The notes beneath the pieces were generated by a model, which had not been told where the DNA came from, ran no database searches, and saw only the letters and a program-made list of their open reading frames with translations. A DNA stretch of 64,000 bases, taken from an uncultured Syntrophobacterales bacterium (GTDB lineage Bacteria > Desulfobacterota > Binatia > UBA9968 > JAJDTQ01). Position numbers and translations under genes: made by a program. Shown one piece after another: positions 1-6,857 of the stretch (position 1 is its first letter; each line of letters opens with the position of its first letter). Where the stretch lies: assembly GCA_964630405.1 (NCBI GenBank), contig CAZVUC010000050.1, positions 8,948 through 72,947 of the forward strand, given 5' to 3'.

Positions 1-102
1 CGAGGAGAACCAACCAAAGTAGCTCTCGTCCAACATGAAAAAAACCGCGAGGATCAGCGCACCCAGCAAATACCAAGCAGTGAACGCATCCGGCCGAACC
101 AT
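1..102 (-). CDS. Partial CDS (N-terminal 34 aa only): hydrophobic, probable membrane protein. It continues beyond the window start.
   Basis: ATG at 100-102 (minus strand). AAGAGG Shine-Dalgarno 6 nt upstream. N-terminus MVRPDAFTAWYLLGALILAVFFML is transmembrane-like. Lies directly downstream of the Cys-repeat gene on the same strand. Confidence 0.35.
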   Translation of the reverse strand, partial: MVRPDAFTAWYLLGALILAVFFMLDESYFGWFSS

Positions 103-199: not shown

Positions 200-697
200 T
201 TATTTGCCGTCTCCGTCGGTGTCGATCTGTTCGCAGAGATCGGTGCCCTTGTTGACCGCGACGGCGGCAACACCTGCGCCGACAACCGTGCCAACCGGGC
301 CGGTCGCTACGCCGGCCACGACGGTGGCTGCGGCGCCAGCGTTTACGAGCCCCGTGCATACAGTTTCGGCTACATACTCGACTGCGGTGTCGGCTGCGGT
401 GTGCGTGTACGTAGTCCCTACTTGGGAGTGGTACGCGGGCTCATAGCCAAAGTTCAGGTCGGAACTCGTGCCGGAACCGCTGTCGTCGTCGGCTGACGAC
501 GTGTCTGAGCCGGAATCATCGTCACCGTTGGCGCCGGTGTCGTCGCACGAGCACGAACAACTGCAGCTACATCCGCACCCGCAGCCACATCCGCACCCGC
601 AGCCGTGGACCTCCAGGTCGAGCTCGTCACCGTCCGGGTCCAGCATCCATGAGGTTACGATGGAATCATTGTGGGTGGAAAAGTCAAGAATCTCCAT
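200..697 (-). CDS. Small acidic Cys-Gly/Cys-Ser dipeptide-repeat protein (165 aa). Resembles a metallothionein or a peptide precursor. Function unknown.
   Basis: Strong Shine-Dalgarno AAGGAGG 8 nt upstream of the ATG at 697. Core reads HGCGCGCGCGCGCSCSCSCSCDD and is encoded by a perfect 18-bp tandem duplication at 569-604. C-terminus is Gly/Ala/Val-rich. Confidence 0.6.
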   Translation of the reverse strand: MEILDFSTHNDSIVTSWMLDPDGDELDLEVHGCGCGCGCGCGCSCSCSCSCDDTGANGDDDSGSDTSSADDDSGSGTSSDLNFGYEPAYHSQVGTTYTHTAADTAVEYVAETVCTGLVNAGAAATVVAGVATGPVGTVVGAGVAAVAVNKGTDLCEQIDTDGDGK

Positions 698-730
698 TTT
701 GGTAGTCCTCCTTCTTTGAGTCCAAGTCCT

Positions 731-799
731 CGAACCGGTGTAGGCGCCTACATAAATTAAATCGTCCGGTTCGGAAAGGACTTAAGGCACGGTCGTGCC
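731..799. promoter_or_regulatory. Candidate operator and promoter region upstream of the Cys-repeat gene. Contains nested palindromes.
   Basis: Perfect 12-bp palindrome GTAGGCGCCTAC at 740-751. It is flanked by inverted repeats CGAACCGG (731-738) and CCGGTTCG (766-773). A second palindrome GGCACG-GT-CGTGCC sits at 786-799. Confidence 0.3.
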
Positions 800-835: not shown

Positions 836-2134
836 TCAGTGGTTGCTATCGCCGGCCGGAAGCGGCGCGGGCTTTACCGGCCGCCGGATGAGCAGAGTCA
901 GTCCGGCGCACAGGATCTGCACCGCGATGAAGAGGATCAGCGACAGGTCGTAGCTGCCGGTGTAGTCGTAGGGATAGCCGAAGGCGAGGCCGCCGGTGGC
1001 GGCGCAGAGCAGGAGGATCGGCACGCTGAGGCTCCGGACCGTGCCGAGGGATATGCGGCCGAAGTAGTTGGCCCACATGACCTCCTGGAGGACTTGCGCG
1101 CCGCCGAGTCCGGCCCCGTAGAGGAAGAAGGCTACGTAGAGCCAGCGCAACTCGGTGGTCTGCAGGGCAAGGACGAGTCCCGAGGCCTGTATCACGAACA
1201 TCAGCGCCGTGGCCTTGCGGACGCTGACCCGTTCTCCCACGAACCCCCACAGAAGGCCCGATCCGAGCTGGGTCGCGGCGGTGACCGTCTGCACGGAGCC
1301 GGCCCAGACCGGCGAGTAGCCCATGTCGGATATGAACGGGACCAGGTGGAGGTTGAAACCCGCGACCCCCATGTCGACGGTGCTGAAGATGAAGGTGATG
1401 AGCCAGAAGGTCGACGTGCGCATGGCTTCGCGCCGGGTCCAGCTCACGTCGGCGAGCACCGGAGCGCTGCCGGACCGGTCCGAAGCGCCCGGGTCCGCGG
1501 CGGTATAGGGTTCGGAGGCGCCGTCGGGGTGAAGGCCCATGTCTTCCGGGCTGCGCCTCATCCAGACCGCCGCGGGGATCATGATGAGGAAGATCACCAA
1601 GACTCCGAAAAGGATCCACACGTAACGCCAGCCGATGGCAGTGAGGAGGACCGCGGCGACGAGGGCGATGGCGGTCTTGGAGATTCCCTGTCCCAGGTGC
1701 GCGATGGCCACGGCCCGGCCGCGCTTCTTCACGAACCAGCGGGAGATGGTGACGTTGACCACGAAGTAGCACACCAGGGCGTGGCCGATGGACACCGGCC
1801 CCACCCGTATCAGCGCGAATTCCCAGAAATTGCGGGCGTACCCCAGCAGCAGGAAGCCGACGATGGAGATGGCCGCGCCGATGACCATGAGCCAGCGGGC
1901 GCCGTAGCGGTCCAGCAGGGAGCCGATCCACGGCGCCACGCCGGCGTAGCTCACCAGTTCCATGGCGCGCATGAGCGAGAACCTGCCGCGGGAGACGCCG
2001 AATTCCGCGGTGATGGACTTCATCAGCACGCCGAGGGTGCTGGAGAGGTAGAAGGGGCACGCGAGTTGCACCACGAAGCCGGTGCCGACGATGTACCAGC
2101 CGTAGAACAGCCTGGGTCTGGTGGACTTCTGCAT
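836..2134 (-). CDS. MFS transporter, paralog 1 of 3.
   Basis: 432 aa with multiple transmembrane segments. N-terminal motif FYGWYIVG...LSSTLGV. Paralogous to 2153-3469 and 4893-6239. Confidence 0.85.
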   Translation of the reverse strand: MQKSTRPRLFYGWYIVGTGFVVQLACPFYLSSTLGVLMKSITAEFGVSRGRFSLMRAMELVSYAGVAPWIGSLLDRYGARWLMVIGAAISIVGFLLLGYARNFWEFALIRVGPVSIGHALVCYFVVNVTISRWFVKKRGRAVAIAHLGQGISKTAIALVAAVLLTAIGWRYVWILFGVLVIFLIMIPAAVWMRRSPEDMGLHPDGASEPYTAADPGASDRSGSAPVLADVSWTRREAMRTSTFWLITFIFSTVDMGVAGFNLHLVPFISDMGYSPVWAGSVQTVTAATQLGSGLLWGFVGERVSVRKATALMFVIQASGLVLALQTTELRWLYVAFFLYGAGLGGAQVLQEVMWANYFGRISLGTVRSLSVPILLLCAATGGLAFGYPYDYTGSYDLSLILFIAVQILCAGLTLLIRRPVKPAPLPAGDSNH

Positions 2135-2152
2135 CGTTTCCAGCGGGACGGT

Positions 2153-3469
2153 TTATTGGCGGGCCGCTTCGGGCGTTGCCGGGTGCCGCGGCCTGCGTAT
2201 CGTAAGCGTCAGCGCGGACGAGATCAGCAGCATGGTCATGAACAGGAAGAGGGAGATCCTGTAGGACCCGGTGTAGTCGTACACGAAACCGAAGAACGGC
2301 GGTCCGCAGACGCCGCACAACAGCACGACCTGGAGGGCGGCGCCCCGAACGGTGCCGAGGGAGACCCGGCCGAAATAGTTCGCCCACATGACCTCTTCCA
2401 GCACCTGGGCGCCGCCGAGCCCCAGGCCGTAGAAGAAGAACCCGAGGTAGATGGTCGACAGGTCCTGCGCGTTCGCCGCCACGTACAGCCCGGCGGCTTC
2501 CACCAGGAACAGGAACGAGATGACCTTGCGGACGCTGACGCGCTCGCCGACGAAGCCCCACAACAGCCCCGAGGTCGCTTGCGTCCCGGCGATGACGGTC
2601 ATGGTCAGGGCGGCCGGAAACCCGCCGAACCCAAGGTCCGAAACGTAGGAGACCACGTGGAGGTTGAGGCCGGTGATGCCGATGTCCACCATGCCGAATG
2701 CCAGGATGATCAGCCAGAAGGTGGACGTGCGCCGCACTTCCTTCCGGGTCCAGCGGACATCGGGATCCGGTTGGCCCCCGGTCCCCGCCGTCCGGCCTTG
2801 CCCGTCGACCGTGCCGTCCATGGGCTCGAGGGCGGCGTCGCCGTCCGGATGGAGCCCCATGTCTTCCGGGCTCCGCCGCATGAAGACGGCCACCGGGATG
2901 ACCGCCAGCACCACCACCAGCACGCCGAACAGGGTCCACACCTGGCGCCATGCGATGAACGTCAGCAGCCAGCCCACCACCGCGGAGATGGCCACCTTGG
3001 CGACGCCGTGCCCGAGGTGCGAGAGGGCCAGCGCCCGCCCCCGCATCCGGACGAACCACCGGGCCACGGTGACGTTCACCACGAAGTAGCAAACCAGCGC
3101 ATGGCCCACGGCCATCAGGGTCATGCGCACGGACGCGAACTGCCAGAAGGAGTACACCCAGCCCAGCAACAGGAACCCGACGGCCGAAAGGATCGCGCCC
3201 GTGACCATCATGCCGCGTGGGCCGTACTGGTCCAGCTTGGCCCCCACCCAGGGAGCCATGAGGGCGTACAGGAGATGCTCACCGGACCGAAGCAGCGAGA
3301 AGATGCCCCTGGAAACGCCGAGATCGGCGGTAACGGGCTTCAGAAAGACGCTGAGGGTGCTGGAGAGGAAGAAGGCGCAGGAGATGTTGGCCAGAAAGGC
3401 GGCGCCGACGATGTACCAGCCGTAGAAGATTCCCGGGCTTCCGGAACGGTGGGTGGAATCAGGGGTCAC
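2153..3469 (-). CDS. MFS transporter, paralog 2 of 3.
   Basis: 438 aa. Same FYGWYIVG...FLSSTLSVFLKP architecture. Lies 18 nt upstream of paralog 1. Confidence 0.85.
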   Translation of the reverse strand: MTPDSTHRSGSPGIFYGWYIVGAAFLANISCAFFLSSTLSVFLKPVTADLGVSRGIFSLLRSGEHLLYALMAPWVGAKLDQYGPRGMMVTGAILSAVGFLLLGWVYSFWQFASVRMTLMAVGHALVCYFVVNVTVARWFVRMRGRALALSHLGHGVAKVAISAVVGWLLTFIAWRQVWTLFGVLVVVLAVIPVAVFMRRSPEDMGLHPDGDAALEPMDGTVDGQGRTAGTGGQPDPDVRWTRKEVRRTSTFWLIILAFGMVDIGITGLNLHVVSYVSDLGFGGFPAALTMTVIAGTQATSGLLWGFVGERVSVRKVISFLFLVEAAGLYVAANAQDLSTIYLGFFFYGLGLGGAQVLEEVMWANYFGRVSLGTVRGAALQVVLLCGVCGPPFFGFVYDYTGSYRISLFLFMTMLLISSALTLTIRRPRHPATPEAARQ

Positions 3470-3644
3470 GGCGGTCCCGGGCGTCGAAGACGGGCAGTCG
3501 GTTCATACTTCTCTCCTCCGGCAGCGGGTGCGGTGCGTGCGGGCTCGGTGCGTTCAGGAAGACTACTTAACTAGGCAATCGCTCGGTCCGAGTCAATCGA
3601 GTGTCCGGTGTCCCGTCCGGTCAATGAATCGACCGGACAGGACA

Positions 3645-4877
3645 CTAGTCCGGAGCCGGCCACAGCCGCCGGTCGAACCGGCGCATCCAGTCGAGACCGG
3701 TGACCCACACCGCCAGCACCGAGACCAGCAGCAGCGAGTTGGCCACGGTGAACGACACGTAGTAGCTGCCGGTGAGATCGTGCAGCGCGCCTCCCAGCCA
3801 GGCGCCCAGGCCGCCGCCGACGCCCACGCTCATGACCGAGAAACCGAAGATGGTCCCGAACCCCTTGCCGGCGAAGATGTCGGCGGTGATGGCCGAGAGG
3901 ATGACGGCGCGGGAGCCGAAGGCGATGCCGAAGCCGCCGACGTAGACGTAGAGCAGCCAAGGCTGCGAGGTGTCCGCTGCCAGGGTGAGGGCCAGGACGC
4001 CGACGGCCGCGCAGGCGATGTTGAGGGTGTAGGCCGCGGTCTTGGTGAAGGCGTCGGCGATGTAGCCGAAGGCCACGCGTCCGCCGGCGCTGACGAACGC
4101 CATGACGCCGAAGACCCCGGCGGCCCAGATGTGGCTGTAACCGATGTCCACCACGTGGGCGACCTGATGAGTGACGATCAGCATGGTGCCCACCGAGCCC
4201 AGCATCCGGGAGATGAACAGGCTCCAGAACTGTATGCTCCTTAGCGCCAGCGAAGCCGACCACTCGCCGGCAGCGGCGGCGGCCGCCGTCCCTCCCGCGC
4301 TTTGCGGGCTGGGCCGGTAGGTGCTCCACACCAGGGGTATGATCAGGATGAGGATCGCCGCCGCCAGCGCCTGGAACACCCGCGGCCAGCCCCACAGGGA
4401 GATCAGCCCCTGACTGAGGGGCGAGAGGATCAGGGTGCCCACCCCCACCGCTCCGTAGACGATGCCCAGGACGAGACCCCGGCGGGAGGGGAACCACTCC
4501 GACACCACCACCACGTGGGGAATCACGCCGCCGGCCGCGAACCCCAGCGACACCACGACCCCGAAATAGAAATAGAGCTCCCACGCCGTGCTGACCCGGC
4601 TGCACAGGAGCAGGCCGGCGGCCAGGACCACGCTGCCCGCCATCACGACCCGCCGCGGCCCCAGGCGGTCGGTGAGGCGTCCGATGAAGGGCGAAGCGAG
4701 CGCGTCGGTGACCAGGTTTGCCGTCTGAAGCCCGGCGGTGACCGCGCGGCTCCAGTGAAAAGTGTCGAGGAGCGCCACGAAGAAGACGCCGAAGGAGGTG
4801 TGGAGGCCGCGAATGAAGCCGAACGTGAACGAAGCGGCTCCGGCGATGACCCACGGATGGTTGGTTTGGCGCGTCAT
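3645..4877 (-). CDS. MFS transporter of a distinct subfamily from the three paralogs.
   Basis: 410 aa polytopic membrane protein with MFS-like topology and loop motifs (GRLTDRLGPRRV). Confidence 0.8.
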   Translation of the reverse strand: MTRQTNHPWVIAGAASFTFGFIRGLHTSFGVFFVALLDTFHWSRAVTAGLQTANLVTDALASPFIGRLTDRLGPRRVVMAGSVVLAAGLLLCSRVSTAWELYFYFGVVVSLGFAAGGVIPHVVVVSEWFPSRRGLVLGIVYGAVGVGTLILSPLSQGLISLWGWPRVFQALAAAILILIIPLVWSTYRPSPQSAGGTAAAAAAGEWSASLALRSIQFWSLFISRMLGSVGTMLIVTHQVAHVVDIGYSHIWAAGVFGVMAFVSAGGRVAFGYIADAFTKTAAYTLNIACAAVGVLALTLAADTSQPWLLYVYVGGFGIAFGSRAVILSAITADIFAGKGFGTIFGFSVMSVGVGGGLGAWLGGALHDLTGSYYVSFTVANSLLLVSVLAVWVTGLDWMRRFDRRLWPAPD

Positions 4878-4892
4878 GGCGGTTTCGCGGCC

Positions 4893-6239
4893 TCAGTCGA
4901 TCCCGGCCCGACCCGCCGGTTCGGACTTGCGTGGGGGGCGCACGGCCAGGACCAGGAACGCCGACAGCAGCAGGGCGCCGATGAACACGTTGAACGACAG
5001 GAAATAGCTGCCGGTGTAGTCGTGGAAGAAGCCGAAGAAGGGCGGTCCGACGGTCGTGAATATACGGGTGATCATGATACCCAGATTGCGCACCCGGCCC
5101 AGGGAGACGCGGCCGAAGTAGTTGGCCCACAGCAGCTCGCGAATCACCAGGATCCCGCCCAGGCCGAACCCGTAGATGATGAAACCCAGGTAGACCGAGA
5201 CCGGCCCCAGGGGCGCAAGGGCCAGCCCCAGGCCGCACACCTGCAAGAGGAACTGGGCGGCGGCTGCCTTGCGCACGTCGATATGCTCGCCCACAACTCC
5301 CCAAATGAGGTTTCCGGCCATCTGGGTCAGGGACATCGCCCCCATTACGGTGGCGGCGATCTCGGGCGAATAGCCGATGTCCGTAATGTAGGGGTAGATG
5401 TGCAGGTTCAACCCGATGATCCCGAACGTGACCGTGCCGTAGGTGACCACCAGCAGCCAGAACGTGCCGGTCCGGACGGCCTCCCCTCGCGTCCATGCGA
5501 TATCGACCGCGGGCGCCTGGTGGGCTTCCTGTTTCTGAGTCTTGCCCGGGGAAGGCTGATGGGGCGCCAGCGCGCCGTCCGGTTGAAGGCCCATGTCCTC
5601 CGGGCTTCGCCGGACCACCAGGAACGCCGGCAGCACGACCATGGCCAGGGTCAACAGGCCGAACACCATCCAGGTGTTGCGCCATCCCACCAACGCGAAG
5701 AGTCCCACGGCGAGCAGGGGCATGGTCGCCTTGGCGAGGCCGTTTCCGGTGTTGGCGATGGAGATGGCACGGCCCCGCTTGCGGACGAACCAGCGCGAGA
5801 TCATGACGTTGACGACCATGTAGCTCATCAGCGTGTCGCCCACGGTGACGGGGAGCCATCGTATGACCATGAACTGCCAGAACTCCTGGATCTGGCTGAG
5901 CAGGATGAAACCGGCCCCTCCCACCAGCGCTCCGGTCACGATGAGCCATCGGGCTCCGTAACGGTCGATGAGGGGGCCCACCAGGGCCGCGATCACCGAG
6001 GAGAACATGACCTCGCCGCTGCGGATGAACGAGAAGACTCCCCGGGAAATGCCGAACTCGGCCGTGAGGGGTTTCAGAAAGATGCTGAGGGTGCTGGATA
6101 GCGCGAAGGACGAGCCGAGGTAGCAGATGAAGCCGACGCCGACGATGTACCAGCCGTAGAAGATCTTGCGGGTCACTATATCGAGTTGGTTTACTGGTGC
6201 GTCGCGGGAATGGCAACCGGCGGGACACGAACCTGGCAA
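4893..6239 (-). CDS. MFS transporter, paralog 3 of 3. The start is uncertain and may be the internal GTG giving VTRKIFYGWY.
   Basis: IFYGWYIVGVGF...LSSTLSIFLKPLTAEFGISRG is highly similar to paralogs 1 and 2. Lies 15 nt upstream of the 3645-4877 gene. Confidence 0.8.
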   Translation of the reverse strand: MPGSCPAGCHSRDAPVNQLDIVTRKIFYGWYIVGVGFICYLGSSFALSSTLSIFLKPLTAEFGISRGVFSFIRSGEVMFSSVIAALVGPLIDRYGARWLIVTGALVGGAGFILLSQIQEFWQFMVIRWLPVTVGDTLMSYMVVNVMISRWFVRKRGRAISIANTGNGLAKATMPLLAVGLFALVGWRNTWMVFGLLTLAMVVLPAFLVVRRSPEDMGLQPDGALAPHQPSPGKTQKQEAHQAPAVDIAWTRGEAVRTGTFWLLVVTYGTVTFGIIGLNLHIYPYITDIGYSPEIAATVMGAMSLTQMAGNLIWGVVGEHIDVRKAAAAQFLLQVCGLGLALAPLGPVSVYLGFIIYGFGLGGILVIRELLWANYFGRVSLGRVRNLGIMITRIFTTVGPPFFGFFHDYTGSYFLSFNVFIGALLLSAFLVLAVRPPRKSEPAGRAGID

Positions 6240-6398: not shown

Positions 6399-6857
6399 AT
6401 GGAACGGACGGTAGCAGCGATGAAGGAAGACACGAAAGTTACAGCTATTACGGCCCAGGACAAGGAGTCCGGCGACCGCCCGGCTCGGGAGCGCGCAATG
6501 GCCGATGCCTTCGATGCCGTGACGTTGTTCGATGCCGACGGCGTGGACGTGGACCTGTATACCGACACGGTCCAGCGCAAGTCGTCACTGGAACCCGAGA
6601 AGCACCTGCTTCTCGCCATCCTCGAGGACGCCCTCGCCTGTTACCGAAAGAACATCTTTGCCCGGACCGCCAGGAAGCGGACGGTCTATCGGGACGCGGA
6701 GGAATGGATCTTCGCCACCGACGATGACCGTTTCCTCGGCTTCGAGTCCGTTTGCGGAGCGCTGGGTATAGAGCCCAGCTACCTGCGCCGGGGCCTGGTG
6801 GAGTGGAAGAGGCGCAAGGTCAAAGCCAACGCCAACGCTCCCGCAGAAGCGGCGTAG
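6399..6857 (+). CDS. Hypothetical protein of 152 aa with an acidic N-terminus and a basic C-terminus.
   Basis: Clean ORF downstream of a good promoter. Codon usage matches the neighbours. I recognise no domain. Confidence 0.5.
   Translation: MERTVAAMKEDTKVTAITAQDKESGDRPARERAMADAFDAVTLFDADGVDVDLYTDTVQRKSSLEPEKHLLLAILEDALACYRKNIFARTARKRTVYRDAEEWIFATDDDRFLGFESVCGALGIEPSYLRRGLVEWKRRKVKANANAPAEAA

Follow-up and report, generated by a model that had tools for sequence, protein, structure and literature searches.

Near the start of the window, by which we mean the whole 64-kb stretch of DNA analysed here, lies a small gene whose predicted product carries a run of cysteines alternating with glycine or serine, which raises the question of what such a protein does and with which partners it acts. 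The open reading frame (200–697, minus strand, stop codon included) starts with ATG and encodes 165 amino acids, and a Shine–Dalgarno sequence, AAGGAGG (707–713, minus strand), lies 9 nt 5′ of the start and is kept in nearly all loci of the family described below. An earlier note had called this a well-expressed-looking gene; the ORF is indeed real, it has homologues, and it looks expressible. The protein contains 28 Asp and Glu versus 2 Lys and Arg. The ORF list, the homologue alignment and the profile search divide it, along the minus strand, into a leader (aa 1–32, MEILDFSTHNDSIVTSWMLDPDGDELDLEVHG; 602–697), a Cys-X repeat (aa 33–51; 545–601), an Asp/Ser/Gly-rich acidic linker with a DDTGAN motif that is kept in the lineage with the MFS island (aa 52–85; 443–544), and a variable C-terminal domain (aa 86–165; 203–442). 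Leader, linker and C-terminal domain recover the acidic N-terminus, the Asp/Ser/Gly spacer and the Gly/Ala/Val-rich C-terminus that had been described from the letters. The repeat reads in full HG-CGCGCGCGCG-CSCSCSCS-C, i.e. G(CG)5(CS)4C, with (CG)5(CS)4C at aa 33–51. The alternation reported earlier is thus right, but the count, (CG)6(CS)4C, is not, as there are 10 Cys and not 11. At the DNA level, the 18-mers at 569–586 and 587–604 are identical (GGC TGC GGG TGC GGA TGT twice on the coding strand), as had been noticed, and Tandem Repeats Finder agrees, reporting 563–604 with a period of 18, 2.3 copies and 95% matches.

Pfam and NCBIfam scans of the window protein and nine other family members returned nothing significant. 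An exhaustive profile search among 1.84 billion representatives placed ∼34 clusters in the family (25 by word-indexed search), and a scan of metagenome contigs added only five further loci, all of known types. The family is rare, previously undescribed and from sponge-associated Binatia. Homologues with conserved cysteines, on which the earlier note had made its reading depend, do exist: C33 and C35 are invariant in the 34 clusters, as are W17, L19, D27, L28, G32 and G34, giving the leader pattern W..L..DLE[IV]HGCGCGC, and the leader is the best-conserved part of the protein. Because the homologues share these invariant leader residues, the gene is more than a chance ORF. Members are 110–309 aa long and have a common architecture, in which a leader resembling a recognition sequence and ending in HG or DG, together with HGCGCGC, precedes 7–16 alternating Cys, followed by an acidic linker and an interchangeable C-terminal domain. 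The number of cysteines is 10 in the window, 10 in a different CG/CS mix in locus L011, and 15 in L026. The variable copy number that the earlier note had expected is therefore found among relatives. It is not found in the sole near-identical strain (L001), whose contig is 99.1% identical to the window in DNA and encodes an identical protein from an intact ORF: here the repeat is the same, giving no evidence of slippage within the population. The exact window protein was found on one Logan contig, and the cluster table does not contain it. An AlphaFold2 model built from a 26-sequence alignment is essentially disordered (pLDDT 50, pTM 0.18), and its sole stretch with a pLDDT of ∼70 lies within the leader.

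The gene neighbourhoods of relatives point to what may act on the repeat. The class of RiPP maturases known as MNIO (DUF692) enzymes is growing fast, and their known Cys-directed products are metal-binding peptides for copper homeostasis. In L029, the gene order is precursor, MNIO (DUF692, PF05114, E = 3.4e-70), partner, ABC transporter, HlyD and TauD, and in L040 it is precursor, two small transmembrane proteins, MNIO, partner, ABC, HlyD, TauD and SDR. L037, in the genome nearest that of the window, comprises a membrane protein of ∼150 aa, MNIO, partner, ABC, HlyD, TauD and SDR, and the same genome also holds L011, a cassette of the same C-terminal class (class C) as the window, and another cassette, L016. 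L037 and L011 are both carried by the complete chromosome OZ244617.1. An MNIO gene is adjacent to a family cassette in L029, L040 and L039, and an MNIO locus lies on the same chromosome as L011, L016 and L019; at least seven cassette-bearing chromosomes carry an MNIO 77–92% identical to that of L029. Remnants of the MNIO 5′ end were found 3′ of the orphan cassettes L011 and L009, and fragments of MNIO, ABC and HlyD genes occur among the loci of relatives. The earlier proposal of a Cys-modified peptide precursor thus gains indirect support from relatives that stand directly upstream of MNIO, partner and type I secretion genes and from these remnants, but no MNIO lies beside this copy. The radical-SAM, YcaO or LanB maturases that had been suggested to lie nearby are absent from every locus for which Pfam annotation was returned, and the maturase in relatives is of a different kind. 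Genes for MNIO, partner, HlyB and HlyD are all absent from the 64-kb window, and modification and export of this copy may never take place. Several type-2 loci likewise keep HlyD and TauD with no MNIO or ABC beside the cassette, and L038 has no HlyD, suggesting that the machinery is often split or decayed.

We then compared the MNIO with characterized families. Against the NCBI models it scores 193 bits for BufB (cut-off 310), 170 for HvfB (cut-off 360) and 41 for MbnB (cut-off 325). BufB and HvfB are the nearest families, and by these thresholds the enzyme is a member of neither; with scores below both equivalog cut-offs, its chemistry is not assured. On repeated Cys motifs, MNIOs of the BufB/HvfB type produce 5-thiooxazoles that bind Cu (PMC13097082, PMC11626156), and the Cys-X repeat is the presumed site of modification here, with the leader as the presumed recognition element for a complex of MNIO and partner. 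The partner, an ORF of 253–262 aa, is always 3′ of MNIO and matches DUF2063 weakly (E = 0.0019 and 0.03, below cut-off), which would be consistent with the ‘PME-type 2’ partner of PMC12452194. Similar to the captophorin, bufferin and oxazolin systems (BufABC, HvfABC, FonABC), in which an MNIO and a DUF2063-type partner make 5-thiooxazoles, the related loci encode an MNIO that scores best against BufB/HvfB, then a partner of ∼255 aa that matches DUF2063 weakly, and a repetitive Cys-rich substrate in which Cys stands beside Gly as in EGKCG; some substrates of those systems are also protein-sized (PMC12452194, PMC13097082). The differences are nonetheless substantial. The family has an acidic leader instead of a Sec signal peptide, and the N-terminus of the window protein is acidic, without a hydrophobic Sec signal peptide. 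Its repeat is a C-G/C-S dipeptide and not EGKCG or DUF2282, and the bufferin and captophorin signatures (DUF2282, BUF_6/12Cys, EGKCG) were absent from the window protein in the Pfam and NCBIfam scans. Its export genes encode an HlyB-type ABC transporter and HlyD, not Sec; its loci have no DoxX gene or metal regulator; its hosts are Binatia, not Pseudomonadota; and its substrate continues into polymorphic C-terminal domains that come with immunity-like neighbours. Methanobactin (MbnA/MbnB/MbnC) is similar in having a leader, a core whose Cys precedes Gly or Ser, and an MNIO that acts on Cys to give a copper ligand. However, the family MNIO falls far short of the MbnB cut-off, no MbnC, MbnT or MATE exporter accompanies it, and the substrate is many times longer. 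A further similar description is that of adjamnio-I, whose putative precursors have 122–293 aa, 8–21 Cys and no signature and are followed by MNIO and a PME-type 2 partner (PMC12452194, Table 2). The arrangement in L029 and L040 and the weak-DUF2063 partner fit this account, a comparison made by description only (PMC12452194). Binatia, type I secretion, variable C-termini and immunity genes all go unmentioned in that paper, and its supplements have no Binatia entry (PMC12452194).

The export genes of the relatives suggest a type I route. The type_I_sec_HlyB model recognises the ABC transporter, E. coli HlyB can be aligned with it over the full length, the C39-like domain included, and HlyD scores over the TIGR01843 cut-off. 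A double-glycine/C39 route was considered and rejected: the transporter has no Peptidase_C39 match and, by eye, no Cys at the catalytic position, for its N-domain the single match is the HlyB C39-like domain (E = 0.0046), of which it resembles the non-proteolytic form, and the leader ends in HG or DG. HlyB substrates normally have C-terminal signals, and the N-terminal conservation of this family counts against the reading we favour below. Class II microcins, above all the siderophore-microcins (MccE492, H47), and colicin V are ribosomal products exported by an ABC transporter with an HlyD-type adaptor, and a small membrane protein for immunity is encoded alongside; a Gly/Ala-rich, membrane-active region is common to them, and colicin V also has a Cys pair. 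The family is similar to them in the ABC and HlyD genes of its relatives' core operons and in its immunity-like neighbour, with the action of these on the window protein being putative. It differs in lacking a double-glycine leader, in the non-catalytic HlyB-like character of the transporter N-domain, and in its size, with some tails being putative enzymes. In class IIb microcins, the metal-chelating moiety is a C-terminal glycosylated enterobactin added post-translationally, whereas the putative chelator of this family would be made in situ from the N-terminal Cys repeat by MNIO.

The C-terminal half is where family members diverge. Behind a single N-terminal module we found at least five C-terminal classes. 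The tail of six members is a hedgehog/LAS-type zinc-peptidase domain, with a profile match to the Sonic hedgehog N-domain (E = 1.5e-5) and the zinc motif H..HY.G.A.D; in L039 this LAS-type domain follows a different N-terminus, and orphan ORFs consisting of the C-terminus only also exist (P0038, P0040). Class C, common only to the window and L011, is presumed from its sequence to be a membrane-active toxin part: two extra cysteines, C114 and C155, flank a Gly/Ala/Val-rich hydrophobic stretch (nt 233–358), and hydropathy exceeds the transmembrane threshold at aa 113–148. Neither the Pfam/NCBIfam scans nor the AlphaFold2 model (pLDDT 50) revealed a recognised toxin fold in this domain. Which gene stands next door depends on the C-terminal class, the pattern of toxin/immunity pairs. 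Downstream of class B there is always a Sel1-repeat protein that carries a signal peptide (L005, L007, L009, L026, L030), the classes with a hydrophobic C..C loop have a divergent ∼150-aa membrane protein alongside in at least 17 loci, and class C has a 125-aa membrane protein with 3–4 transmembrane segments. In the window, this is the membrane-protein gene that had been seen to follow on the same strand and run off the end (1–102, minus strand): its first 34 aa lie inside (tblastn, aa 1–34 at 102..1), the remainder was recovered from L001, and an 82% identical copy stands beside the same toxin class in L011. Such co-variation, as in polymorphic toxin systems, is a correlation, and protection by the neighbour is putative. 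The family resembles polymorphic toxins (CDI, Rhs, MafB; Zhang/Aravind classification) in combining a conserved N-terminal module with swappable C-termini and an immunity gene alongside, in its tandem and orphan modules, in the reuse of a toxin domain behind another N-terminus (L039), and in its atypical composition. It differs in that its proteins are very small and that the N-terminal module is a RiPP-like leader with a Cys repeat tied to a maturase, and not a T5/T6/T7 trafficking domain. The scans of family members revealed no known pre-toxin domain.

Taking these observations together, we consider the gene to be probably the precursor of an MNIO-modifiable, type I secretion-linked polymorphic bacteriocin which, with its immunity gene, forms an orphan cassette in Candidatus Binatia. 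The same Cys chemistry could instead serve a secreted metallophore that is no toxin, in which the modified repeat, in the manner of bufferins and captophorins, buffers or scavenges copper or a different metal, the C-termini act as carriers or anchors, and the membrane neighbours handle or anchor the product. Such a role agrees with the copper-binding products of BufB/HvfB, the nearest relatives of the MNIO (PMC13097082, PMC11626156), with the fact that MNIO substrates can be long proteins with additional domains (PMC12452194), and with conservation being concentrated in the leader and the Cys repeat; a further hint is that the hydrophobic C..C stretch might anchor the protein in a membrane. 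The Sec signal peptide, DoxX gene and metal-responsive regulator typical of bufferin and captophorin clusters (PMC12452194) are missing, however, and the C-termini are polymorphic, one class being a LAS-type peptidase domain. A neighbour that switches with the C-terminal class, periplasmic Sel1 proteins included, also argues against a metallophore, as do tandem and orphan cassettes, atypical composition and low synonymous divergence, which are typical of toxin/immunity modules and unexpected for metal homeostasis. We therefore regard a metallophore as unlikely.

The bacteriocin reading is further consistent with how the locus has evolved. The window holds an orphan cassette only, placed after four tandem MFS transporter genes, the last of which (836–2134, minus strand; Pfam MFS_1) forms the upstream border of the variable island and lies outside the system. 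The four MFS genes were also considered as the exporter; this was rejected, as the core and type-2 loci have no MFS genes and a duplicated MFS 3′ fragment marks cassette insertion. Such a fragment lies between two toxin/immunity pairs arranged in tandem (L007 and L013). The putative immunity gene has a GC content of 46–50% versus 66% for the window and genome, and the toxin gene has a GC3 of 0.72 versus 0.85–0.92 in its neighbours. Between the window and L011, dS is 0.19–0.22 in the cassette versus 0.40–0.67 in the flanking genes. In the same comparison, dN/dS of the Cys-repeat gene is 0.56 and that of the leader alone 0.33; a value of about 0.5 is compatible with relaxed constraint. Another explanation is that the cassette is a decaying relic left by recombination, which has lost its modification, export and use and whose reading frame survives only owing to the recency of the event. 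The lack of machinery in the window, the dN/dS of the gene and its GC3 below the genome norm would all fit a relic, as would degraded relatives, which include copies truncated at 43 aa (L014, L017) or 69 aa (L027), a frameshifted one (L010), and the MNIO, ABC and HlyD fragments. Against this, the ORF is intact and its protein unchanged in the second strain, the invariant leader residues, the Shine–Dalgarno sequence and the conserved upstream block have all been kept, the leader has the lower dN/dS, and the genome of the closest relative provides an intact machinery operon in trans. A relic is thus quite improbable in our judgement. The earlier note had missed three things: that the C-terminal domains vary, that an immunity-like neighbour co-varies with them, and that the locus is a cassette.

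Under the bacteriocin reading, the following mechanism can be proposed. The leader would dock the precursor to an iron enzyme, the MNIO (DUF692), and to a DUF2063-like partner, with the genes of both lying elsewhere in the genome. The MNIO would then oxidise the cysteines of the repeat; by analogy with BufB/HvfB, its nearest relatives, 5-thiooxazoles are the likeliest product, and the modified repeat would form a dense metal-binding (copper) module. After export by the HlyB-type ABC transporter and HlyD, the C-terminal domain, here a Gly/Ala/Val-rich hydrophobic hairpin bracketed by two Cys, would damage competitor cells, and the adjacent small membrane protein would shield the producer. The cassette may have been inserted by recombination 3′ of the unrelated four-MFS array, bringing its own promoter-like region and 5′ hairpin/palindrome. 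More speculatively, the family may represent a new type of weapon, a protein toxin with an MNIO-made poly-thiooxazole (chalkophore-like) metal-binding module secreted by HlyB/HlyD. Its head might serve as a Trojan-horse ligand for the metallophore receptors of the target or might deliver copper, making it a copper counterpart of siderophore-microcins, with swappable tails and matching immunity genes circulating as cassettes among sponge symbionts; we hold this to be doubtful, though conceivable.

To our knowledge, all large MNIO families so far have Sec signal peptides or short leaders. We found nothing in the open-access literature searched that connects MNIO with type I secretion, immunity, polymorphic toxins or Binatia. 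If our reading is true, it would extend MNIO substrates to dipeptide (Cys-X)n repeats and to proteins with polymorphic-toxin-like C-terminal halves and immunity partners, and MNIO products to HlyB/HlyD type I export. It would also join metallophore RiPP chemistry with inter-bacterial toxin cassettes, two fields previously unconnected, in the little-known uncultured Binatia symbionts of sponges. If only its conservative part is true, the window gene is still a clear example of an orphan precursor/immunity cassette, one in which the adjoining genes do not reveal the function. The hypothesis lends itself to a direct test, since the sequences of precursor, maturase, partner and putative immunity protein are in hand.

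The upstream region bears on the remaining alternative, an unmodified cytoplasmic metallothionein-like sponge controlled by a metal-responsive repressor bound to upstream palindromes, which the earlier note had also put forward. Alternating Cys (CxC) do resemble those of metallothioneins, and inverted repeats are present upstream. The palindrome is perfect and spans 14 bp (TGTAGGCGCCTACA, 739–752), not the 12 bp given before, at a position that could be 5′ UTR, transcription start or operator; the outer inverted repeat that encloses it (724–783, arms 724–738/766–783) is longer than the 8 bp described, imperfect, and found only in the subgroup of the window, L011 and L026. The other element, GGCACG-GT-CGTGCC, is present as reported (786–799), forming a hairpin just 3′ of the MFS stop codon that may be the terminator of the MFS gene; other loci do not have it. 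In an alignment of 30 upstream regions, the supposed operators proved to belong to promoter-like sequence kept across the family, with a block (756–785, minus strand) composed of TTAAGT (780–785), an 18-nt spacer with CCG..CGG, and TTTAAT (756–761). TGTnnGGCG is kept across loci, and perfect palindromy is confined to the window's subgroup. Palindromy is thus not kept across the family as the promoter-like block is, and no regulator was found, so that repressor operators find no support. ArsR/SmtB, CsoR or MerR regulators and metal-efflux genes, which had been expected nearby, were not found within ±10 kb of the loci with precomputed Pfam annotation, and the window has no maturase, metal regulator or efflux gene. 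The lack of a match to bacterial metallothioneins (SmtA/BmtA) or any other family in Pfam and NCBIfam, the link of the family to a maturase and a secretion system, and the polymorphic C-termini and immunity-like neighbours, for which such a sponge offers no place, also weigh against it; this idea is already largely refuted by context and is very improbable. A scan for sigma-70 and terminator consensus sequences found no promoter upstream of the Cys-repeat gene, and the promoter function of 756–785 is accordingly an inference. The lone ‘terminator’ from that scan sits inside the Cys repeat and was discarded as a repeat artefact. A Rfam scan of positions 1–1200 of the window returned no RNA family, and folding of the intergenic RNA was better than that of all 200 of 200 shuffled sequences (z = −3.9).

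The open reading frame that an earlier note had placed at positions 200-697 of the window does exist, but on the minus strand. It starts with ATG, 9 nt after an AAGGAGG sequence, and encodes a 165-aa protein with 28 acidic and 2 basic residues. Its Cys repeat was also found, with one Cys fewer than had been counted: the peptide reads HG-(CG)5-(CS)4-C and contains ten Cys. The identical 18-mers at 569-586 and 587-604 were confirmed; in Tandem Repeats Finder they form an array of 2.3 copies with a period of 18, the unit on the coding strand being GGC TGC GGG TGC GGA TGT. This perfect duplication indicates a recent event. The size and composition of the repeat vary among relatives: locus L011 also has ten Cys in another mix of CG and CS, L026 has 15, L023 has 16, and others have 7-14. 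In the sole near-identical strain for such a comparison, represented by the 3.7-kb Logan contig L001 (99.1% identical to the window), the encoded Cys protein, including its repeat, is the same. The proposed copy-number slippage is thus supported on evolutionary time scales and not as a behaviour like phase variation. Further along the protein, C114 and C155 flank a Gly/Ala/Val-rich stretch that lies above a simple transmembrane hydropathy threshold. Scans of the protein against Pfam and NCBIfam gave no match, and the AlphaFold2 model predicts an essentially disordered chain (pLDDT 50). The GC3 of the gene is 0.72, compared with 0.85-0.92 for the other genes of the window, whose overall GC content is 66%.

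A word-indexed search of 5.8 billion proteins returned 25 homologues, and only 34 of 1.84 billion cluster representatives matched in an exhaustive profile search (E ≤ 1e-3), showing that the family is real but rare. In a scan of one genome per GTDB species, 21 loci were found. The hosts are nearly all 'Candidatus Binatia bacterium' MAGs, with a few labelled Deltaproteobacteria, Thermodesulfobacteriota or Syntrophobacterales, and isolate names such as RHO1_bin_74 suggest that several loci come from sponge-microbiome bins. All members share an N-terminal module with the consensus '[PR]W.L....[DE]LDLE[IV]HGCGCGC' (W17, L19, D27, L28, G32, C33, G34 and C35 being invariant), a Cys-X repeat of 7-16 Cys in which X is mostly Gly, Ser, Ala, Thr or Asp, and an acidic linker. 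Immediately behind the repeat, the motif DDTGAN, or D[DNS]TGA[NH] (window aa 52-57, nt 527-544), is near-invariant in the lineage whose islands lie beside MFS genes and is missing from members at the type-2 and core loci described below; cleavage, binding of a metal or Ca2+, and recognition are possible roles.

Beyond the linker, the members fall into unrelated sequence classes. One class has a hydrophobic segment rich in Gly and Ala that is enclosed by two Cys and leads into '...ETLLVVH' or '...TYFAVGN'. The others are a class ending in '...DSIRDSLRN', helical classes, a '...KKF' class, and the window's own class, common to L011 only. In six members the C-terminal domain carries the motif TSGT[DE]G.H...S.HYSG.A.D...H.H.E.D, and its profile matches the N-terminal domains of Sonic, Indian and Desert hedgehog, zinc-ligand segment included, with E-values from 1.5e-5 to 1e-4. 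The hedgehog N-terminal domain has the LAS zinc-peptidase fold, as found in bacterial cell-wall DD-peptidases. The LAS-type domain also occurs at L039, where the N-terminus before it is entirely different and a signal-peptide protein comes next. Modules also occur singly, as ORFs consisting of the C-terminal domain only (P0038 and P0040) and as truncated N-terminal stubs at L014, L017 and L027. The stubs, of 43 aa at L014 10013-10144 and L017 10013-10144 and of 69 aa at L027 10001-10210, are decayed members that keep the leader and a few Cys. A frameshifted member lies at L010 8584-9155, on a 5x-coverage long-read contig where a sequencing error is possible.

The neighbouring gene varies together with the C-terminal class. 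Downstream of the Cys gene, a membrane-protein gene on the same strand starts at position 102 and runs out of the window, as had been noted; L001 supplies its full sequence of 125 aa with 3-4 transmembrane segments, and over this gene the GC content of that strain falls to 46-50%. The same protein (82% identity) follows the only other member of this class, at L011, and a third, orphan copy is found at L014 (15128-15484), where a Sel1 gene has been retained as well. Behind members of the '...DSIRDSLRN' class, the next gene always encodes a Sel1-repeat protein (E = 4.6e-83) with a signal peptide (L005/L030, L007/L013, L009 and L026). Alongside the classes with a hydrophobic loop between two Cys, at least 17 loci encode membrane proteins of about 150 aa from one divergent family (25-35% identity), just upstream or just downstream of the family member. 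The combination of one conserved head with exchangeable tails, small neighbours that vary along with them, orphans and tandems is the signature of a polymorphic toxin/immunity system, in which toxicity and protection are putative functions.

In the main lineage, where the gene order around it is conserved, this cassette of Cys gene and neighbour lies in an island after transketolase, ThyX, a 144-152-aa protein, two MFS genes, sometimes an Amidohydro_2 gene, and two further MFS genes; an ornithine cyclodeaminase-like protein, a molybdopterin oxidoreductase and further genes follow. Island content varies by genome, and L007 and L013 hold two family members in tandem. There, the last MFS gene has its 3' end duplicated between the two cassettes, over 109-124 aa (L007 10182-10511, L013 6350-6724), as a recombination scar that is the footprint of cassette insertion by homologous recombination. 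Between the window and L011, the closest relative of its lineage, dS is 0.19-0.22 for the cassette genes but reaches 0.67 in the MFS gene and 0.40 in the cyclodeaminase gene on the flanks, indicating that the cassette was moved or exchanged more recently than its surroundings. The dN/dS values are 0.56 and 0.48 for the cassette genes and 0.22 and 0.08 for the flanks. Since other family loci are without any MFS genes, we conclude that the MFS genes are a landing site only and that the cassette sits in a variable island rather than in an operon of MFS genes.

Other loci link the family to a maturase and a secretion system. At L029, a family member is directly followed by an MNIO, an iron enzyme of the MbnB/TglH/ChrH family, formerly DUF692 (PF05114, E = 3.4e-70), then by a 260-aa partner protein that matches DUF2063 weakly (E = 0.0019), a 761-aa ABC transporter, HlyD and a TauD-family gene. 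L040, from a more distant 5.96-Mb genome, has the order precursor, two small transmembrane proteins, MNIO, partner, ABC, HlyD, TauD-family dioxygenase and SDR. In the L037 operon, the gene for a membrane protein of about 150 aa overlaps the start of MNIO and is followed by partner, ABC, HlyD, TauD and SDR, with no precursor adjoining; its chromosome, OZ244617.1, also carries the L016 cassette and L011, whose cassette is most like the window's. Type-2 loci consist of a cassette, HlyD and TauD, the latter two about 70% identical to those behind MNIO, partner and ABC at L029. Short MNIO 5' remnants closely follow the cassettes at L011 (25 aa, 80% identity) and L009 (47 aa, 74% identity), and seven or more closed cassette-bearing chromosomes have an MNIO that shares 77-92% identity with that of L029. 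The core operons, remnants, type-2 loci and shared chromosomes suggest that the ancestral unit probably comprised precursor, immunity, MNIO, partner, ABC, HlyD, TauD and SDR genes, and that precursor/immunity cassettes were since copied elsewhere. The 64-kb window itself has no MNIO, partner or HlyD gene, and its sole ABC match is weak and generic (25% identity).

An alignment of 30 upstream regions revealed a conserved block in both locus types. Read on the minus strand of the window, it consists of an A-tract (811-816), [CT]TAA[AG]GT (780-785), an 18-nt spacer with CCG..CGG, CGATT/TTnTAn (756-764), TGTnnGGCG in the palindrome region and finally the Shine-Dalgarno sequence. It looks like a promoter travelling with the cassette, although a sigma-70 consensus scan did not call it as one. 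The region folds better than 200 of 200 shuffles and matched no family in an Rfam scan. The palindromes described upstream of the gene are present, as a perfect 14-bp palindrome (739-752) inside an imperfect inverted repeat (724-738/766-783) and a second small hairpin, GGCACG..CGTGCC (786-799). The former arrangement occurs only in the subgroup of the window, L011 and L026, other groups having different short hairpins at this position; the latter is not conserved in other loci and may be the terminator of the MFS gene. As no regulator gene was identified for them, an operator role is a possibility and not a finding. The reading of the protein as a metallothionein under a metal-responsive repressor is not supported.

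The suggestion of a Cys-modified precursor draws strong support from genetic linkage in relatives, but not directly from this copy. Against NCBIfam, the MNIO scores highest with BufB (193 bits) and HvfB (170 bits), below the equivalog cut-off of both, and far lower with ApyH, ChrH and MbnB (41 bits for MbnB); among solved structures, its best relative is 3bww, a DUF692 protein from Haemophilus somnus. With DUF2063 partners, BufB-, HvfB- and FonB-type MNIOs convert Cys in repeated motifs to copper-binding 5-thiooxazoles (PMC13097082, PMC11626156). The ABC transporter fits the type I secretion subfamily of HlyB (558 bits), and its alignment with E. coli HlyB spans residues 49-725; its N-terminal domain matches the HlyB C39-like domain (E = 0.0046) and not a catalytic C39 peptidase; HlyD is above the TIGR01843 cut-off. 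Building on the observed architecture, linkage, co-variation and cassette evolution, we infer that the partner/MNIO complex would bind the leader and oxidise the alternating Cys. The most likely products are thiooxazoles, of which up to ten would make a chain of metal-binding heterocycles. More speculatively, the TauD-family enzyme and SDR might add a further modification, e.g. of the Asp-rich linker. The product would be exported by the HlyB/HlyD system, the C-terminal domain would harm competitors (membrane-active in the window, elsewhere a cell-wall peptidase or another type), and the neighbouring membrane or periplasmic protein would shield the producer. By analogy with siderophore-microcins, the metal-binding head could possibly serve receptor hijacking.

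This family shares its enzyme neighbourhood and repeated Cys with the captophorin-bufferin-oxazolin (MNIO/DUF2063) group, which differs in its use of Sec signal peptides and other motifs, in its metal-stress gene context and in the lack of toxin tails. ABC/HlyD export, membrane immunity proteins and a chelator-toxin logic recall class II and siderophore-microcins, yet those have double-glycine leaders, C39 processing and different chemistry. The modular logic is that of polymorphic toxin systems, whose trafficking modules differ. Compared by description alone, the family may be the 'adjamnio-I' group of Antoine et al. (PMC12452194), which comprises 100 uncharacterised proteins, 122-293 aa long and containing 8-21 Cys, encoded in the order precursor, MNIO, PME-type 2; that paper does not mention secretion genes, variable tails or Binatia. 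The open-access literature searched yielded no report of MNIOs linked to type I secretion, immunity genes or polymorphic toxins. On balance, we favour the view that the window locus is an orphan precursor/toxin and immunity cassette from a polymorphic family that is linked to MNIO and type I secretion. That the family forms a new class of metallophore-tagged toxins seems rather unlikely.

Several features of the surroundings were also observed. HlyD is in every case followed by a TauD/TfdA-family Fe(II)/2-oxoglutarate dioxygenase with weak similarity to amino-acid beta-hydroxylases, and the SDR usually comes next (L037 15276-17053, L040 13295-15141, L024 12556-13539). Chromosome OZ243984.1 encodes three MNIO paralogues (P0050, P0057 and P0073) and has an MNIO operon in a rearranged hot spot (L039 286-7845, 11146-12943). 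Within this hot spot lie two unannotated ORFs of very large size (1300 and 640 aa) and a LAS-peptidase toxin whose N-terminus is of a non-Cys type, with its signal-peptide neighbour. Fragments of ABC and HlyD, a DruA-family gene and a DDE transposase are also present, as are another Cys-repeat precursor, a peptidase S9 and a second MNIO. Type-2 loci adjoin duplicated GPP34-family genes flanking a STAS-domain gene, downstream of UbiD and IleRS (L010 6373-8204, where the copies are 71% identical to each other; L024 9021-9710; L031 7149-7802). GPP34 (GOLPH3-like) proteins are, to our knowledge, unusual in bacteria. NCBIfam places the four paralogous MFS genes of the window (836-6239, minus strand; 432, 438, 410 and 448 aa) in the oxalate/formate-antiporter or L-lactate-transporter type. 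All related Binatia genomes keep this array, some with an Amidohydro_2 gene in the middle, and it probably serves nutrient uptake unrelated to the cassette. The 144-152-aa protein, with the motif ...ADAFDAVTLFDADGVD...KTPLEPEKHLLLAILED... and no Pfam match, always lies between ThyX and this array on the opposite strand (window 6399-6857, plus; L002 1896-2336; L003 3274-3708; L004 2700-3140) and might regulate the MFS genes. Related genomes also encode small, highly charged repetitive proteins, e.g. with 'RHGEAVKAAEM' or 'ERESEKRHAESV' repeats, between the FAD oxidoreductase and RadC genes (L002 16289-16822, L003 15881-16231, L007 17229-17558).
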